Translations under genes and position numbers: made by a program | Virus record (IMG/VR): IMGVR_UViG_3300005512_005684 | Location: 167,003 to 231,002 of that record | Length of the DNA stretch: 64,000 nucleotides | Source: a virus | Taxonomy: Duplodnaviria; Heunggongvirae; Uroviricota; Caudoviricetes | Direction: 5' to 3' (one strand) | Shown: positions 39,333-48,941 of the stretch, in pieces | Layout: every line of letters starts with the position of its first letter | Position numbering within the stretch: position 1 is the stretch's first letter | Notes under the pieces: model-generated | Databases searched by the model: none | Told to the model about the DNA's origin: nothing | Seen by the model: the letters and a program-made list of their open reading frames with translations, nothing else

Positions 39333-39360
39333 TTGACAAGCCGAACTGATTGAGTATTAT
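39333..39360 (+). promoter_or_regulatory. sigma70-like promoter
   Basis: TTGACA-N16-TATTAT. Confidence 0.55.
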
Positions 39361-39498: not shown

Positions 39499-40443
39499 AT
39501 GAAGACCGCAAACCTTAACGAACTTGCCACCTCGCTTTCGGTCGGAGACCTTGAGCGTCTCCTGGCCTTGAAGCAGAAAGCGGCAGAAAAGAATGCGGGA
39601 AGGATCGCGAGGCTCAACGAGCGGCGCGATAAACTCAGTGGACAGATCAATGAGATCGACACGAAGATCGCTGCGTTGGAAGGGGCAGATGCTCCCGCTC
39701 CCAAGGCGCGGAAGGAAGGGAAGGGGAAGCCGAAGGCCAAAACCGGACCCAAGCCCAAGGTTGAACCCAAAGCCGCTGGCCGGAAGTCCGGTGCGCCGAC
39801 GATTGCCGATCTCGCCAAGTCGTTTCTGGCCGGACAGGACGAACAGCAAGCGGGTCTCAGCGAGATTGCCGCACATGTCGTGCAGACTCGGACGGGCAAA
39901 GCCGAGTATGGTGGCAGTGAATACACGGCGATTTCGACCGCGTGTCGCAACTGCCCGGACATCGTGAAGGTTGTACGTGGTGTGTACCGTCTCAAGGCAG
40001 GTGCCACGGTTGATGCCACGGAGGTCGGTGACGCGTCTGCGGCTGAGGACACGGCACCCAAGGCCGATAAACCGTCCAGGCCGAAGCGTCGGAAGACCGC
40101 AAGCCGGAAGACCAAGACCAAGGCCGAAGCCACTGAGGGCGGTTCTGAGGCGTCTGAGGGCGGTTCTGAGGCGTCTGAGGGCGACTCGGCGAAGCCCAAG
40201 CGTAAGAAACGCAAGAAAGGCAAGGTTGCGAAGGCCGGTCCTGTCGCAGGGAACGGCAAGGTCACTGATCAGGCGTTCGAGTACCTCACGGGTCGTAAGA
40301 GCAAGTCCGCGACCGTCGATTCTCTGGTCGCGAAGGTGCTCGGTGCGGATGTGGAGGCACGGAAAGTCGCCGGATTCAAGATGGCACTTGGCCGTGATTC
40401 GCGGTTCGCTCGTGAGGGCGACAAGGTGTCGCTCGCCGGATAG
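39499..40443 (+). CDS. basic nucleoid-associated/histone-like protein (coiled coil + two winged-helix-like modules)
   Basis: LSVGDLERLL..KLSGQINEIDTKIAALEG coiled coil; K/A/P-rich linkers; IADLAKSFL..VVRGVYRL and VTDQAFEYL..RFAREG modules. Confidence 0.7.
   Translation: MKTANLNELATSLSVGDLERLLALKQKAAEKNAGRIARLNERRDKLSGQINEIDTKIAALEGADAPAPKARKEGKGKPKAKTGPKPKVEPKAAGRKSGAPTIADLAKSFLAGQDEQQAGLSEIAAHVVQTRTGKAEYGGSEYTAISTACRNCPDIVKVVRGVYRLKAGATVDATEVGDASAAEDTAPKADKPSRPKRRKTASRKTKTKAEATEGGSEASEGGSEASEGDSAKPKRKKRKKGKVAKAGPVAGNGKVTDQAFEYLTGRKSKSATVDSLVAKVLGADVEARKVAGFKMALGRDSRFAREGDKVSLAG
40133..40183 (+). repeat. 21-bp tandem repeat (EGGSEAS), ~2.4 copies
   Basis: CTGAGGGCGGTTCTGAGGCGT repeated. Confidence 0.85.
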
Positions 40444-40453
40444 TCGGAAACGT

Positions 40454-40492
40454 AAGGGCAAGCGCGCCTTGGTCGGTGCGCTTGCCCTTTTT
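40454..40492 (+). terminator. Rho-independent terminator
   Basis: AAGGGCAAGCGC/GCGCTTGCCCTT stem followed by T run. Confidence 0.8.
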
Positions 40493-40532
40493 ATGTCGGT
40501 TCATATACGTGTATTACGACAGGAGTAGAGTC

Positions 40533-41252
40533 ATGCCCAGGAGTCCAGAAAGCAAAGAACGCCGCCAGCGTGTTGGTTCGGCACTGAAGGCGGCGGAAGC
40601 GGATACCGAAAAAGTGCCGGAAGCAGACGACAGTAAGATTCGCGTCCGGGTGCCGAAGAAACATCGTGAGACGGCGAAGAAACTGATCGCTGCGACCAGG
40701 GAGAACAAACGTGGTGAGCGTGATCGCAAGGAAGCTCTGGCTACGTTGCTTCCCTTCGCTCGCGTGAAGTACGTCGGTGGTGCGACCGAAGGTCCATATC
40801 GAGATCACGTTGTCCTGGACGTGGGTGACGATGACGAGTCTCCGCCCATTAACGTGATCTTTTCCCACAAGTACTCGGAGATTCCACTCGACCAGGCCAA
40901 GGTGCTCAGGGAGATCGTTGGTCGGAAGTTCGCCGCGTGCTTCGAGACAGTGAAGAAAGTGACACTCAAAGACGCGGTTGCGAAGTCGGAAAAGAAACTC
41001 GACTCGCTAATTCGGGCGCTCGGCGGAGAGCAGCGTCCTGGTAAGGAAGAGGAGATCGCTGAAGTTGGCAAGAAACTCTTTGCCGAAAACTTCGACGTGA
41101 AGCGCTTCCTTGCCCCGACCAGGCACTTCACGGAGGAACGCTGGCAAGAGTTCACGGCGGAAGAGAACGCCGCGCTCGACGAGATCATTACTCAGTCGGC
41201 ACCTCAGGTCAGGATTGACGTGTCGCTTGACGACGGCGACGACGAGAGTTGA
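40533..41252 (+). CDS. hypothetical protein
   Basis: CAGGAG RBS before ATG 40533. Confidence 0.7.
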   Translation: MPRSPESKERRQRVGSALKAAEADTEKVPEADDSKIRVRVPKKHRETAKKLIAATRENKRGERDRKEALATLLPFARVKYVGGATEGPYRDHVVLDVGDDDESPPINVIFSHKYSEIPLDQAKVLREIVGRKFAACFETVKKVTLKDAVAKSEKKLDSLIRALGGEQRPGKEEEIAEVGKKLFAENFDVKRFLAPTRHFTEERWQEFTAEENAALDEIITQSAPQVRIDVSLDDGDDES

Positions 41253-41263
41253 GATAGTTCCCA

Positions 41264-41299
41264 GGGCAGACCCGCCTCGGTGTGGCGGGTCTGTCTTTC
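41264..41299 (+). terminator. Rho-independent terminator
   Basis: GGCAGACCCGCC/GGCGGGTCTGTC stem followed by TTTCT. Confidence 0.65.
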
Positions 41300-41374: not shown

Positions 41375-41403
41375 TTGACAGGGAATAGCCGGATTCTTAG
41401 AAT
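41375..41403 (+). promoter_or_regulatory. near-consensus sigma70 promoter
   Basis: TTGACA-N17-TAGAAT upstream of the poly-acidic protein gene. Confidence 0.75.
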
Positions 41404-41532
41404 TAGCGCCCAGTAATTGATTTTTCGATTTACTGGACACTACCTTGGGCGTCCGCAGTGGGCGTCCAGATTGGAAATGCGAACTCGTGTTTCCGGCTTT
41501 TGTCACCGCCACACAGTTACGGAGGTAGCACA

Positions 41533-42618
41533 ATGGCGAAGCGTAGCAGGAAGTCGTCGAAGGGTAAGGGCAAGGTGAAGGGCAAGGACATCGAACAGGA
41601 AGTTGAGGAACAGGAGGAACAGGAGGAAGAGGTCGAAGACGAAGAGGAACAGGAAGAGGTCGAAGACGAAGAGGAACAGGAAGAGGACGACGAAGACGAC
41701 GAAGACGAAGACGACGAGGACGAAGACGAAGACGAAGACGAAGACGATGACGAAGACGATGACGACGACGAAGACGAGGACGACGACGAAGACGAGGACG
41801 ACGACGAAGACGAGGACGACGACGAAGACGAGGACGACGACGAGGACGACGAAGACGACGAAGACGAAGACGACGAAGACGACGAAGACGACGAAGACGA
41901 CGAAGACGACGAAGACGACGAAGACGACGAAGACGAAGACGACGAAGACGACGAAGATGACGAAGATGACGAAGACGAAGACGACGACGATGACGAAGAC
42001 GAAGACGATGACGACGACGATGACGACGACGAAGACGAGGACGACGACGAAGACGAGGACGACGACGAGGACGACGACGAAGACGAGGACGACGACGAGG
42101 ACGACGAAGACGACGACGGAGACGATGACGAAGACGACGACGATGACGAGGACGACGAAGACGAAGACAGTGACGACGAAGACGAAGACAGTGACGACGA
42201 AGACGAAGACAGTGACGACGAAGACGAAGACAGTGACGACGAAGACGAAGACAGTGACGACGAAGACGAAGACAGTGACGACGAAGAGGAAGACGAGGAT
42301 GAAGACGAGGAACCTCCTGCAAAGCCCAAGAAAGGCAAGACCAAGCCCAAAGCCGCGGCCAAGCCTGCGAAGGGAAGCAGTCGGCGTGGACCACGACCGG
42401 CGATTGAGGACGAACCCCTTGTCCGACGATGGCTCGACGGTGTTGACCTCTCCAAGGTCAAAGAGAATGTCGCCGCACTTGACGACGAGAACATCCGTCG
42501 AAAGAAAGAGCAGTTGGAAAAGGAAGCCATCTTGCTCAAACTTTGCGAGGAACAGTCGAAGGGGAAGCTCAAGGGGAAGACCAAGGGGAAGACCAAGGGT
42601 CGCAAGACCAAGAAATAG
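41533..42618 (+). CDS. poly-Asp/Glu tract protein with basic termini
   Basis: GGAGG RBS; ~240 consecutive residues almost entirely D/E, flanked by K-rich ends. Confidence 0.8.
   Translation: MAKRSRKSSKGKGKVKGKDIEQEVEEQEEQEEEVEDEEEQEEVEDEEEQEEDDEDDEDEDDEDEDEDEDEDDDEDDDDDEDEDDDEDEDDDEDEDDDEDEDDDEDDEDDEDEDDEDDEDDEDDEDDEDDEDDEDEDDEDDEDDEDDEDEDDDDDEDEDDDDDDDDDEDEDDDEDEDDDEDDDEDEDDDEDDEDDDGDDDEDDDDDEDDEDEDSDDEDEDSDDEDEDSDDEDEDSDDEDEDSDDEDEDSDDEEEDEDEDEEPPAKPKKGKTKPKAAAKPAKGSSRRGPRPAIEDEPLVRRWLDGVDLSKVKENVAALDDENIRRKKEQLEKEAILLKLCEEQSKGKLKGKTKGKTKGRKTKK
41593..42312 (+). repeat. low-complexity GAC/GAA/GAG tract with 9-, 18- and 21-bp units
   Basis: GACGAAGAC and GACGAAGACGAGGACGAC units plus six copies of GACGAAGACGAAGACAGTGAC. 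Confidence 0.9.
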
Positions 42619-42647: not shown

Positions 42648-42698
42648 GATCAAGGGCGGGAGTCATGGCGTTGACAGCGTTGTGCCCCGCCCTTGATC
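42648..42698 (+). terminator. long hairpin (terminator or processing site)
   Basis: GATCAAGGGCGGG/CCCGCCCTTGATC 13-bp stem. Confidence 0.55.
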
Positions 42699-42756: not shown

Positions 42757-44115
42757 ATGGTGAACGTGGTGCGTAGGAAGAAATACATCCAGACCAATGT
42801 GGACGAAAGCCACAACAAGTTTTGGTACATAACCGAGTATGACGACGCGACCGTAGTGCGTGAGTGGGGAGCAGTTGGTACGAGGGGACAGAAAGACAGT
42901 CCAAAGAAGTCTTTCCCCTCTCAAGATGCAGCCAGCAAATTCTTCGACAAGGAATGCAAGGGGAAAGAGAAAGGGAAGAAAGACAAGAAAACCGGCCTGC
43001 GGAAGGTCTATACCGAACTCCAGGTCCTCGACGACGATGGACAGGGGGCAGTGGCACAAGGCACGGTGGCCAATGATTCGTTGTCGGATGTGGCGCATCG
43101 GGACATAAGTGGTGGTGACCCGATTGTCGGCGAACTCGTGGCCATGTTGGTTCGTCAGAACCAACACAATATCCTTACGAACACGACCATGAAGTACAGT
43201 GCGGCGACGGGCTTGTTCTCGACGGCGTGCGGAATTGTGACTCAGGCGTCGATTAACGAGGCTCGTAGTCTCCTGAATCAGTTGGTGCCATACGTGTCCA
43301 GTCAGCAATTCGAGGACACGCAGTACGCGCCGTTGCTGAATCAGTACTTGATGCTCATTCCGCAAAAGGTGAAACGTCAGCGGGGGAAGCTCGTGGCGTC
43401 ATTGATCTTCCCGGACGCCGAGGCGTTGCGAAAGCAAGACGAGATTCTGACTTCGCTACAAGCGTCTCTGGATACGTTACAGACGAGAACGAACGGGGGG
43501 AGTGACGCGGAGGTTGCCAAGGTCTTCGACGTGCGTGTGGCGCTTATCGAAGACGAGGAAGAGATCGAGCGGATCACTCGGAAATACATGGAAACTCGTA
43601 CGTCTATGCACACGTGCGCCCACCTGCGAGTGTCCCGAGTGTTCTCCATGAGGATTGGGAGCATGGTCGAACGCTTTGAGCGTGAGGGTGTGCCTCGCGG
43701 CAACATCTTTGAGTACTGGCACGGGTCTCGTACCAGTAATCTCCTGAGTATTCTTCACAAGGGTCTCATGGTGCCGCCGAAGTCTTCCGATCATGTTACA
43801 GGGAGACTGGTGGGAGACGGTCTGTACTTCAGTGACATTTCCACGAAGGCGTTGGGATACTCATACGGTTTCTGGAGTGGTGGAAACCAGAAAGACAATA
43901 ACCCATTCATGTTCCTCGCGGACGTGGCAATGGGTAAGGTCTTCGAGCCGACGAGTCTGGCCAACGATGGACCTTTCCCAGTGAGAGGATATGATTCGAC
44001 GCTCGCCCGAGCCGGAACAACGATTCGCGGACATCGGACGCTGAAGAACAACGAAATGATCGTGTACACGGTCGGACAGGTAAATCTCAAGCGCATGGTG
44101 GAGTTCACGTCTTAG
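42757..44115 (+). CDS. PARP1-like poly(ADP-ribose) polymerase (WGR + regulatory + catalytic domains)
   Basis: WGR: NKFW..EWGAVGTRGQ; regulatory: GIVTQASINEARSLL..NQYLMLIP; catalytic: WHGSRTSNLLSILHKGL..GDGLYFSD..KALGY..NNEMIVY. Confidence 0.92.
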   Translation: MVNVVRRKKYIQTNVDESHNKFWYITEYDDATVVREWGAVGTRGQKDSPKKSFPSQDAASKFFDKECKGKEKGKKDKKTGLRKVYTELQVLDDDGQGAVAQGTVANDSLSDVAHRDISGGDPIVGELVAMLVRQNQHNILTNTTMKYSAATGLFSTACGIVTQASINEARSLLNQLVPYVSSQQFEDTQYAPLLNQYLMLIPQKVKRQRGKLVASLIFPDAEALRKQDEILTSLQASLDTLQTRTNGGSDAEVAKVFDVRVALIEDEEEIERITRKYMETRTSMHTCAHLRVSRVFSMRIGSMVERFEREGVPRGNIFEYWHGSRTSNLLSILHKGLMVPPKSSDHVTGRLVGDGLYFSDISTKALGYSYGFWSGGNQKDNNPFMFLADVAMGKVFEPTSLANDGPFPVRGYDSTLARAGTTIRGHRTLKNNEMIVYTVGQVNLKRMVEFTS

Positions 44116-44148: not shown

Positions 44149-44832
44149 ATGAGTCTGCAAGCATCTGAGATCGAAGCAGTCGAAAAGATTGTGTCGGTGA
44201 AAATGGACGCCGAGGAAATGTTCACGGCGTTCAACGTGACCCTTGAGGCGCAGATGCAGGGCGTCCATAGGAAGAACGTCGAGTTACGGGACATCATTCA
44301 CATGATGTATGAGCGTGGTAACATGCCAGACTATACCCGGACGTTAAAGGACATTCCGGGAGCGCCGGCCCCGGCCTGGGTCTATCACCCGGAGCACATG
44401 TCTGCGGATGATTTCATGCCGTTGGATCGAACTGGGCAACGGAGACAGAAACAGGCGACGGCGATTCAGGTCGCGCAAGCGGCAATGGGAGCTTCGCCGA
44501 AAGCTCCGGTTGCAACGGCTCCGCAACCGACGGCTCCGGTTCCGGCAGTTGGGGCGCATGTGCCGGACGGTCGTGGTCGGGTGTGTGTCCCGGTCGAAAT
44601 GGTGAAGTCTCTCGGGTTGGTCAAAGGTGACGACGTGTACGTGGCCGTGAATACGGAACGGCTGGAGGTGACGAAGGGTTACCCAACGGCGGACGTTGCG
44701 GTGATCGGTTACGTGGTCGATCCGCGAGGTAACATTCGCGTGTCGAAGCAGACTCTCGACAGGGCACAGTTCAAGTGCTCCGAGTTCAACATCGTGGCGG
44801 AGAACGGTACCGTTGTGATCACACCAAAGTAG
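44149..44832 (+). CDS. protein with C-terminal tandem AbrB/SpoVT/MraZ-like domains
   Basis: PDGRGRVCVPVEMVKSLGLVKGDDVYV and VDPRGNIRVSK. Confidence 0.6.
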   Translation: MSLQASEIEAVEKIVSVKMDAEEMFTAFNVTLEAQMQGVHRKNVELRDIIHMMYERGNMPDYTRTLKDIPGAPAPAWVYHPEHMSADDFMPLDRTGQRRQKQATAIQVAQAAMGASPKAPVATAPQPTAPVPAVGAHVPDGRGRVCVPVEMVKSLGLVKGDDVYVAVNTERLEVTKGYPTADVAVIGYVVDPRGNIRVSKQTLDRAQFKCSEFNIVAENGTVVITPK

Positions 44833-46555: not shown

Positions 46556-46830
46556 ACAGAGAAGTAATCGAGCTTTGCTTCGAGCCGGACACCCCTCGAA
46601 TCGAGGTGTCGAGAGAGGTGGCTCAGATGATCACTCAGCTTCGTGACGACCTGGACATTACTGACCATGACCTGGCGGAGCGTGCGGGTGTTGCGTATGG
46701 TCTCGTGTGGAACTGGTCGCATCCGAAGGGTAGTCGTGGATTGTCGGTTCATACCTTGCTCCATATCGCACGAGCTTTTGACAAGCGTCTCGTGATTCGT
46801 TTCGAGGACATCGAACAGAAAGGTCAATGA
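46552..46830 (+). CDS. XRE-like HTH protein
   Basis: DLAERAGV..SVHTLLHIARAFDKRLVIRF. Confidence 0.7.
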   Translation: MNREVIELCFEPDTPRIEVSREVAQMITQLRDDLDITDHDLAERAGVAYGLVWNWSHPKGSRGLSVHTLLHIARAFDKRLVIRFEDIEQKGQ

Positions 46831-48941
46831 TGGGACGCCGAATCAAGTACCTGGACAAGGACTTTCGCGCCGATGCTCTGGCCATTATTGAGCAAGCGAA
46901 TACGATCATTGACGACTATCGGTCACAGGGCTTCGACTTGACTTTGAGACAGTTGTATTATCAGTTTGTCGCCCGTGGTCTCATGGAGAACGAAGACCGG
47001 AACTACAAGCGCCTTGGGAAGATTATATCGGACGGGCGCATTGCGGGACTGGTGGACTGGGACGCTATACAGGATCGAACCCGCAACCTTCGGGCGAATG
47101 AGAGTTGGGCTTCCCCTGCGGACATCATGCGGGATACTGCCGGATGGTATCACCGGGACATGTGGGCGAATCAGAGCGTGCGTGTTGAGTGTTTTCCTTC
47201 CGATACTTTGGTGAGACTTCGGGATAGGATGGAATTGATAGAGAGTGTCAGGGTCGGAGACGAAGTTCTTTCGGATGATGGTAGTTTTAGGAAGGTCACG
47301 AAGACGTTTGTTCGTGATTACGTTGGCAGGTTAATCGAGATTGACGCGGTTGGTTTACTTTCGTTTGCGTGTACGCCAGAACACCCTATCTTGATACGAC
47401 CGTATGACGATTCCAGACCTGGTTACAAAGGCGCTCGTCGCAAGTACGGCAAGAGATGTTTTGCTCATACCGATGTTCTAAAGAAGTATGATTTTCTGTG
47501 TGTGCCGAGGATACGTTCTGTGAGAGACGTGTCGTGTGTCACGATGCCCGGAGGAACAGTCAGAGCCAAAGCCTATTCGGCAATACTGGACGAGGACATG
47601 TGTGCCTTGATCGGAACGTATCTGGCAGAGGGGAGAGTGAGAGAGGATGGACGTACCTTACAGTTTACGTTGAATGCAAACGAGACCGAGGCACGAAAGA
47701 GAATACAAAAGTGGGCGGAGCGCGTTGGATTGAGACATCATTGTGTGGTGAGTGGAAGTGTGGCTCAGGTCTATGTTTATAGCAAAAGCGTAGCGGATTG
47801 GTTTGAGCAAAACTTTGGTAATGGTGCGTACGAGAAGCGAATTCCTGAGTGGATGATTTTCCTACCTATTCCAAAGCAGATGGCTTTGTTGAAGACGTAC
47901 TTTGAGGGAGACGGTTCGTTGTGGGACGAAACACGGTCGTCAATACGAGCAAGTACTCGTAGTTATCAACTTGCCTCTGTGATTCAGTTAATCTTTGCTA
48001 GGGTTGGTCTGGGTGCGTGTCTCAATACTCAGATGGATTCTGGGGATATGAGGTACGAGATCGGAGTGAATGGTGCGTTTGCTGAGACATTGGCTAGAGA
48101 GTGGGGTATCGAGTTACCCAAGATGTCCAGTAGATATAATTGGATCCGTGTGGATAGTGAGTTTGTGTACTATCCTGTGAGAGAGATAGGAAATCGTTTT
48201 TACCGCGGTCCAGTGCATAATCTTGAAGTGGAAAAACGACATACCTATTGTCTTCCATGCGTTGTACATAATTGTTGGATCGAGAAAGACGCGCTAATCG
48301 GTGTGATTATGCCTGTGTGTCGTGAGTTGGACGTGCCGCACTTTTCGTGTCGTGGGTACGTGAGTCAATCTGAAATGTGGATCGCAGGCCGGCGCGCCGT
48401 CCAGCGTTGGGCGAAGGAACGTAAGCGTACGATCATCCTTCACCTGGGAGATCATGACCCCTCCGGTGTCCAGATGACAGAGGACATGGAGAAACGACTG
48501 GACATGTTCTCGACTCCGACCGAGCGTGACGGTTTCAATCCAGAGGACATAATCGAAGTCAAGCGCATTGCGTTGACGATGGAGCAAGTCAATCAGTACA
48601 ACCCTCCGCCTAATTCGGCCAAGCTCACGGACACGAGGTCGAAGGCATACGTGGCTCGGTACGGTAATAGTTCCTGGGAACTTGACGCGTTAGAACCAAC
48701 TGTACTCGATGCTCTGATTCGCACTCACGTTGAGTCATACCGAGACCTGAGTCAGTGGACTGAGGACTTGGAGAAGATCGAGCGTGAGCGAAAAGTGTTG
48801 ACAACGATCTCTCAGAATTGGGTTGAGGTCGATGAATTCGTCAACGAGAACTTTGAGCCGGAGCCAGAGCTACCGGAGCCGGTCGAGGATGACGACGAAG
48901 ACCTGGAAGACGAAGACCTGGGAGAGGGAAATGAGGATTGA
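46827..48941 (+). CDS. Toprim-domain (TopoVI-A/Spo11-like) protein containing an intein
   Basis: TLRQLYYQ..RVE|CWIEKDAL..RGY..LHLGDHDPSG..RIALT..WELDAL. Confidence 0.8.
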   Translation: MMGRRIKYLDKDFRADALAIIEQANTIIDDYRSQGFDLTLRQLYYQFVARGLMENEDRNYKRLGKIISDGRIAGLVDWDAIQDRTRNLRANESWASPADIMRDTAGWYHRDMWANQSVRVECFPSDTLVRLRDRMELIESVRVGDEVLSDDGSFRKVTKTFVRDYVGRLIEIDAVGLLSFACTPEHPILIRPYDDSRPGYKGARRKYGKRCFAHTDVLKKYDFLCVPRIRSVRDVSCVTMPGGTVRAKAYSAILDEDMCALIGTYLAEGRVREDGRTLQFTLNANETEARKRIQKWAERVGLRHHCVVSGSVAQVYVYSKSVADWFEQNFGNGAYEKRIPEWMIFLPIPKQMALLKTYFEGDGSLWDETRSSIRASTRSYQLASVIQLIFARVGLGACLNTQMDSGDMRYEIGVNGAFAETLAREWGIELPKMSSRYNWIRVDSEFVYYPVREIGNRFYRGPVHNLEVEKRHTYCLPCVVHNCWIEKDALIGVIMPVCRELDVPHFSCRGYVSQSEMWIAGRRAVQRWAKERKRTIILHLGDHDPSGVQMTEDMEKRLDMFSTPTERDGFNPEDIIEVKRIALTMEQVNQYNPPPNSAKLTDTRSKAYVARYGNSSWELDALEPTVLDALIRTHVESYRDLSQWTEDLEKIERERKVLTTISQNWVEVDEFVNENFEPEPELPEPVEDDDEDLEDEDLGEGNED
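47190..48272 (+). mobile_element. intein with LAGLIDADG homing endonuclease (361 aa)
   Basis: Starts CFPSDTLV; block B HPIL; LAGLIDADG-like LIGTYLAEG and YFEGDGS; ends VHNLEV..VVHN followed by Cys(+1). Confidence 0.92.

Follow-up and report, generated by a model that had tools for sequence, protein, structure and literature searches.

What use a phage might have for a protein of which about two-thirds is aspartate and glutamate is the question raised by a stretch of DNA of 64,000 nucleotides (the window, to which all coordinates refer unless given as genome positions), taken from a jumbo phage whose 331,348-bp IMG/VR record is 99% complete. A simple gene caller places 517 genes in this genome, all on one strand, and among the 517 encoded proteins the acidic one has the lowest net charge (-199), the runner-up standing at -65. 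The record carries a provirus label, nine tRNAs lie at 234-239 kb of the genome, and neither of the two terminase models run on the genome gave a match. By its capsid protein, the phage is closest to the uncultured huge phage LR745208 (60%), followed by Tunturi_5 (44%) and Bacillus phage G (36%). None of these three relatives contains a long acidic tract, which argues that the tract is not a core function. Two further acidic proteins, both basic at the ends and carrying blocks of D/E, are encoded at genome positions 298409-300045, between the head protease and capsid genes, and are probably scaffold or internal head proteins.

The initial annotation, made from the sequence alone, had described a 361-residue open reading frame with a nearly pure D/E tract of about 240 residues, six DEDEDSD units and lysine-rich ends, equipped with its own near-consensus promoter, a strong ribosome-binding site and a downstream hairpin. 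Recalculation agreed with this description: the tract amounts to 242 residues, 226 of them D or E (139 D and 87 E, as assembled), the remainder being 6 S, 5 Q, 3 V, 1 I and 1 G, with no K or R; the longest uninterrupted D/E run covers residues 50-195; the six DEDEDSD units start at residues 208, 215, 222, 229, 236 and 243; and three basic blocks and all the expression signals could be located (Table 1). Two elements were added, namely a predicted two-helix domain (residues 294-345) and a structured 5' leader. A single-sequence AlphaFold2 model places a short helix at residues 294-302 and a long one at 306-345 (pTM 0.35), the Atlas model of the protein has a pLDDT of 0.34, and the protein is probably mostly disordered. 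Charge is distributed along the chain in a blocky pattern.

Table 1. Features of the acidic gene and its surroundings (window coordinates)
Feature	Coordinates	Strand	Remarks
Sigma70-type promoter of the Rok-like gene	39333..39360	+	11/12 match
Rok-like nucleoid protein (putative), 314 aa, net charge +24	39499..40443	+	proposed partner (inferred)
Intrinsic-terminator-like hairpin at the end of the Rok-like gene	40454..40495	+	hairpin
239-aa protein between the two promoter-led genes	40533..41252	+	no Pfam or PHROG match
14-bp hairpin followed by UUUCU	41263..41297	+	z -4.91; would insulate the acidic gene from upstream transcription
Sigma70-type promoter of the acidic gene, TTGACA-17-TAGAAT	41375..41403	+	11/12 match
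Structured 5' leader, three hairpins	41410..41532	+	z -4.44
Shine-Dalgarno sequence GGAGG	41521..41525	+	7 nt before the ATG
CDS of the 361-aa acidic protein	41533..42618	+	pI 4.05, net charge -199
Basic N-terminal tip, residues 1-18	41533..41586	+	9 K/R (+9)
Acidic tract, residues 19-260	41587..42312	+	E-rich start, then 146-residue pure run, then serine-containing heptads
Perfect 21-nt tandem array, DDEDEDS x6.5	42151..42287	+	longest exact repeat
PAKK-type lysine-rich linker, residues 261-290	42313..42402	+	11 K/R (+11)
Orphan helical domain (predicted), residues 291-345	42403..42567	+	single-sequence model
Basic C-terminal tail, residues 346-361	42568..42615	+	12-nt repeat, KGKT units, 9 K/R (+9)
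Hairpin between the acidic gene and the PARP gene	42648..42698	+	z -6.19, then imperfect U tract UUUACUU
WGR-PARP_reg-PARP enzyme	42757..44115	+	complete; H, Y and E motifs

A tract of this kind could be an assembly expansion, or could lie in a frame that is not translated. Some observations point that way. A public protein collection lacks the acidic protein and splits its neighbourhood over two contigs, with the upstream genes on one of 15,691 bp and the PARP side on one of 6,580 bp, which indicates that this other assembly broke in or near the acidic gene; moreover, three other frames are also open across the tract. However, the same assembly is fragmented elsewhere as well (4,692 bp), and the open frames are a consequence of the GAN repeat. 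Exact repeats within the tract do not exceed 116 nt, all of its 127-mers are distinct (600/600; for 77-mers, 610/650), and this leaves little for an assembler to multiply. The same phage is present in ENA entry ERZ27252100 with one difference in 2,359 nt. Only the D/E frame possesses an ATG with a well-spaced Shine-Dalgarno sequence and a promoter, and it is this reading alone that is framed by the unique basic ends and the terminal hairpin. In addition, the first codon position of the tract is G in 230 of 242 codons and the second is A in 231, while the third takes all four bases, as expected if the charge of the protein is what is kept. An assembly expansion thus appears unlikely from the sequence, and the chance that either form of artefact explains the gene is considered very small indeed. 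The existence of a real orphan gene at 41533-42618 is secure, whereas its exact length is not, the copy number of the 21-nt array being the least certain part of the tract.

The growth of the tract has left its own record, since it is built of tandem duplications with units of 9, 18, 21, 27 and 30 nt, and collapsing the perfect duplications of at least 7 codons leaves 153 codons (101 when those of at least 3 codons are collapsed). This is what would be seen if replication slippage had run away with a modest acidic linker that retains some role, its extreme length being nearly neutral, and both the wide variation in tract length among analogous proteins and the absence of the tract from the closest capsid relatives agree with it. 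However, 242 residues without any K, R, aromatic residue or stop codon, and base variation confined almost wholly to third positions, speak against free drift, and with one of the two strongest host-type promoters driving it, such a product would come at a high cost. This explanation is therefore held to be distinctly improbable.

The part of the protein that might have revealed a family, residues 262-361, found no homologue among proteins of near or shorter length or in 301 Planctomycetota genomes, nor any match in the PDB, PHROGs, Pfam, BFVD folds or the Atlas, and for this domain or its neighbours none was found in viral or metagenome contigs. Four hits from the homologue search were discarded as spurious, each being summed from matches of 5-10 bits across repeat proteins. 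The design, in turn, could be looked for directly. A pattern spanning 120 D/E codons, run over 2.9 million viral contigs, was matched in 24 of them, and under a single scoring scheme this protein scores 197, against 171 for the best of the 24. Its tract is the longest stand-alone viral D/E tract among those found here. At least 119 viral contigs have a pure run of 45 D/E codons; in 42 of these 119 proteins a basic block follows the run, and in 15 there is one on both sides. Three proteins of IMG/VR phages (L146, L147 and L152), whose tracts measure 131-147 aa between basic ends, are close parallels in design, and they adjoin polymerase, primase and helicase genes. Together with a fourth (L032), they form a set with basic ends and D/E tracts of 100-147 aa, some members of which bear small helical domains that look like nucleic-acid-binding modules; the C-terminal domain of the acidic protein has no match in the tract-bearing analogues. 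In another group of phage proteins (L078, L133, L135 and L140), a folded domain at the N-terminus, which bears cysteines and looks SSB-like by eye, precedes D/E blocks that alternate with lysine blocks.

In prokaryotes, the same 120-codon pattern returned 108 stretches from 185,579 genomes, and 17 of the 80 that were read (one microsatellite-ridden bin being left out) score at least as high as this protein, including Bacillus cereus-group proteins with tails of 206-239 aa. Members of that group (L224, L185, L176 and L165) combine a conserved short domain with a C-terminal D/E tail of 128-239 residues. A GTDB bin labelled Metamycoplasmataceae (L153, L158, L181, L192, L194, L197 and others) is rich in GAC/GAT microsatellites that extend over hundreds of codons, which suggests eukaryotic contamination. 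The initial annotation had called so long a tract very unusual in prokaryotes or their viruses. This is correct as to the length, which is at the extreme for viruses, but not as to the design, which is rare yet recurrent: basic-acidic-basic proteins are met repeatedly in phages, and bacteria have tracts of equal length.

The surroundings of the gene were considered next to its anatomy. As judged from sequence, the promoter, the leader and the flanking hairpins make up a self-contained acidic-gene unit. The three leader hairpins lie at about 41410-41436, 41445-41469 and 41471-41496, the leader (41410-41532) having no Rfam match; the third, followed by CUUUUG, is terminator-like and stands ahead of the start codon, so that it may attenuate expression. 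A direct repeat, GGGCGTCC, is found in the leader at 41447 and 41460. The hairpin after the coding sequence is likely a terminator or attenuator. Sites matching 11 of 12 positions of the sigma70 consensus number two in the 331-kb genome, heading the acidic gene and the gene at 39499; both are intergenic, on the coding strand and 2 kb apart, and the minus strand has none. With 0.63 such sites expected genome-wide, the count of two is by itself unremarkable; the striking part is the placement, since the chance of such a site within a given 200 nt is about 4e-4. One further gene and two terminators separate the two promoter-led genes; this further gene (40533-41252) has a terminator-like hairpin on either side, and no promoter was found for it. 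A different motif, TGATAA-N17-GAGTCTACAGGTG, occurs in four intergenic copies between 18955 and 34016 of the window and is absent upstream of the acidic and PARP genes; its copies are perhaps promoters for the phage sigma factor encoded at genome position 93636. Downstream, the gene that directly follows the PARP (44149-44832) encodes an AbrB/MazE-like domain with an E value of 3e-4 (below the cut-off), and a 704-aa gene with an intein (Hint + LAGLIDADG) and a short acidic tail at its end is found at 46827-48941.

The first candidate partner is the PARP, which lies directly downstream as had been noted, its start being 138 nt after the acidic coding sequence. Glutamate and aspartate are acceptor residues of PARPs, and a PARylation scaffold had been among the roles initially suggested. 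One could imagine the acidic protein as a dedicated acceptor, activator or PAR mimic for an adjacent enzyme that is complete in its catalytic motifs and for which no promoter of its own was found, so that read-through from the acidic-gene promoter is possible. However, a strong hairpin sits between the two genes, and the pairing is not seen in the other phages examined. The phage PARP is about 30% identical to the PARPs of phages XacN1, Xoo-sp13, CM1 and FBKp34, this kind of enzyme having already been noted in jumbo phages (BBA65562.1; PMC7824862), and the genomes of these four phages, all with a full-length PARP, lack any D/E run of 15 codons or more. At seven PARP loci, no long acidic neighbour was seen, and the jumbo phage PaBG has a D/E tract while no PARP was found in it. 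Near all the PARPs examined, just one acidic patch stands out, a 24-aa stretch about 1.4 kb downstream of the PARP of Stenotrophomonas phage CM1 (L303:8619). With PARP and long D/E tracts failing to co-occur in the other phages examined, the scaffold suggestion lost its footing: the link looks incidental, the PARP is probably a neighbour and not a partner, and a dedicated role of the acidic protein in its service is deemed very unlikely.

A second candidate is the lysine-rich protein encoded at 39499, made of an N-terminal coiled coil (with a long helix at residues 15-62), K-rich linkers and two winged-helix-like modules. The Atlas shows a resemblance to Planctomycetota clusters (0.85-0.87, a lead only), and a full-length chromosomal homologue was found in a Planctomycetota genome (31% identity, E 2e-22); one host homologue likewise has two winged-helix-like modules. 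In a search confined to that phylum, the family appeared in 27 of 301 genomes, with up to seven copies each. Its profile matches the solved DNA-binding domain of Rok (5zuz, E 0.0013), and of 27 members, 5 match HARE-HTH and one matches WH_Rok. Rok, known only from Bacillus in a 2020 review, uses its N-terminus to oligomerise and a winged helix to contact DNA (PMC7074111), and the 39499 protein likewise has an N-terminal oligomerisation-type coil and a C-terminal winged helix. It is thus most likely a phage copy of a host Rok-like nucleoid protein, and its family may be regarded as candidate xenogeneic silencers of Planctomycetota. Given these chromosomal homologues, the phage most likely infects a planctomycete, and the host is probably a member of that phylum.

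These data can be integrated in a model, held tentatively and with a little less than even confidence, in which the acidic protein, disordered and made early, serves as a polyanion that would buffer basic nucleoid or silencer proteins or strip them away, much as prothymosin-alpha does with H1; by analogy, it is probably a negatively charged sponge for DNA-binding proteins. The acidic and Rok-like genes would be transcribed together by the host RNA polymerase as infection starts, giving an abundant early protein that acts through charge rather than shape. Its 226 carboxylates far exceed its own 41 basic residues, and it should therefore not stay on DNA. It would instead form a fuzzy complex with lysine-rich DNA-binding proteins, chiefly Rok-like ones, both the host paralogues and the phage's own copy; at +24 each, about eight of them could be neutralised by one acidic chain. 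Silencers would thereby be stripped off the phage DNA, or the host nucleoid loosened, and the phage's own nucleoid protein would be buffered or handed over, as in the prothymosin-alpha and histone H1 case. The basic tips probably fold back onto the tract and tune the protein, D/E repeats being able to mask basic DNA-binding blocks intramolecularly (PMC10250230), and the C-terminal helix probably oligomerises or docks it. A more specific version, in which a captured Rok-like silencer and a dedicated, co-expressed polyanion that controls it and its host paralogues would be a prokaryotic counterpart of H1 and prothymosin, is possible but doubtful.

Several observations favour a nucleoid target. 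The shared ownership of the only two 11/12 sigma70 sites makes the Rok-like gene a better link for the acidic gene than the PARP; the Rok-like nature of the 39499 protein, resting on homologue, profile and domain matches, supports such a target; and the cultured jumbo phage PaBG likewise has an acidic gene next to genes for lysine-rich coiled-coil proteins. The genome yielded no match to the RNA-polymerase motif DFDGD, so that early genes should depend on the host polymerase, as the model supposes. There are precedents as well: prothymosin-alpha is a disordered polyanion that acts on histone H1 (PMC7661507), and Gp46 (PMC8892312) and DMP12 (PMC3643605), from phage or bacteria, neutralise nucleoid proteins. 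The nucleic-acid mimic and the chaperone for the neighbouring basic protein, both raised in the initial annotation, have thus gained ground where the PARylation scaffold has not. Other observations count against the pairing. No homologue was found by which it could be seen to be conserved; the host family genes have no acidic neighbour at any of 30 loci; and a third gene and two terminators separate the two phage genes. Co-occurrence in other phages was checked on five records, and no Rok-like match was found in two IMG/VR phages with analogous acidic proteins, both genomes being incomplete. Descent of the C-terminal helix from a duplicated coiled coil of the 39499 protein was considered and discarded, as a profile of 33 family N-termini gave this helix -0.2 bits (E 29). 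A complex prediction with residues 286-348 of the acidic protein and an alignment of residues 1-170 of the neighbour scored 0.01, which carries no weight either way.

A polyanion is promiscuous, and the true target could thus be RNA polymerase or ribosomal proteins. The first of these can be framed as a host-takeover DNA mimic comparable to SPO1 Gp44 or to the acidic tail of delta: tethered by its helical domain or its basic arms, the protein would insert its tract into the main channel, and host sigma70 transcription would be shut off in favour of the phage's own sigma factor. Gp44, with a DNA-binding domain and a disordered middle of 57% D/E, binds beta and beta' (PMC8208478), and the C-terminal region of delta displaces nucleic acids from RNA polymerase (PMC7749165). 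The stand-alone unit behind a strong host-type promoter would suit this role, as would a phage that has one sigma70-family gene and no polymerase motif found. Nevertheless, the protein resembles neither Gp44 nor delta in sequence or fold, its tract is three to four times longer than theirs (67 aa, and 83 aa with a net charge of -47), and a non-specific inhibitor would also hit phage transcription. Inhibition of the polymerase is therefore judged unlikely, although it rests on the same physical principle as the nucleoid-protein model and differs from it in the target.

A further alternative looks for the function within the chain: a self-associating polyampholyte that would, together with basic partners and cations, scaffold a condensate or phage DNA compartment, or an autoinhibited DNA binder of the HMGB1 type. 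The blocky charge pattern fits either form, three of the analogues (L152, L147 and L146) adjoin replication-type genes as described above, and D/E repeats are known to autoinhibit DNA-binding proteins and to speed their target search (PMC10250230). However, a net charge of -199 disfavours self-coacervation and DNA binding alike, the C-terminal domain has no recognisable DNA-binding fold, and the acidic gene does not lie within a replication block, so that this alternative appears rather improbable.

If the more specific version, with a captured silencer and a dedicated polyanion, is true, it would represent counter-silencing by polyelectrolyte competition, without a folded mimic, and would expose the proteins behind the planctomycete nucleoid, which is highly condensed (PMC3440768) and an obvious place to search. 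The inhibitors of nucleoid proteins known from phages are folded mimics, each with a single target; a disordered polyanion of 240 residues directed at a silencer family would carry a principle of eukaryotic chromatin over to the conflict between phage and host. The finding points, in any event, to an unstudied Rok-like family in Planctomycetota. If the tract were only a drifted linker, it would be a curiosity of length.

Comparison with known systems places the protein between several of them. Prothymosin-alpha has short basic segments of its own. It resembles the phage protein, as pictured in the model, in being a disordered polyanion that engages a DNA-binding protein rich in lysine through charge alone (PMC7661507), and a large net negative charge in a predicted-disordered chain is indeed what is found here; it differs in being eukaryotic and not homologous, the phage tract being much longer and accompanied by a helical C-terminal domain. 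SPO1 Gp44 is alike as a flexible mimic of nucleic acids whose disordered middle is rich in D/E and devoid of basic residues (PMC8208478), the corresponding region here being residues 19-260. However, the folded domain of Gp44 is N-terminal, Xis-like and DNA-binding, and its acidic region has 67 aa at 57% D/E, whereas the phage protein studied here has 242 aa at 93% D/E and an unrelated folded part at its C-terminus, without a folded N-terminal domain and without any PHROG, Pfam or PDB match. The delta subunit RpoE is comparable in its polyanionic region beside a basic stretch, its tail competing with nucleic acids (PMC7749165); it consists of a folded N-terminal domain and an 83-aa tail, while the phage tract is central, so that the long disordered acidic region and the adjoining lysine stretch are both present in a different order. 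The N-terminal HARE-HTH of delta (PF05066) is missing, with no Pfam match at E 0.1, and HARE-HTH-like modules occur in the family of the 39499 neighbour, not in the acidic protein.

PaBG_00125, from the jumbo Pseudomonas phage, shares the basic N-terminal tip and the long D/E tract and is flanked by the lysine-rich products of PaBG_00124 and PaBG_00126 (coiled-coil genes). It differs in its total length of 150 aa, with a tract of about 86-90 residues at the C-terminus and no basic C-terminal part, and no homology between the two proteins was found. T7 Ocr and T4 Arn are structured DNA mimics. With these, and with DMP12 (PMC3643605) and Gp46 (PMC8892312), the likeness lies in the proposed outcome, host DNA-binding proteins being occupied; all four are folded and have defined targets, whereas the phage protein is disordered and without a fold match. 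Neither the core of nucleoplasmin nor the RRM expected of a nucleolin was seen in Pfam or PDB searches or in the two-helix model, and the coil homologous to a silencer that would mark an H-NST-type truncated form is lacking (-0.2 bits, E 29, as above). A gp32-like SSB would have a folded ssDNA-binding domain before the tract and would lie in a replication block; here, only 18 aa precede the tract and the neighbours are not replication genes. The acidic protein thus falls outside the delta, Gp44, nucleoplasmin, SSB and truncated-silencer families, and, by analogy, it plausibly works like their acidic regions.
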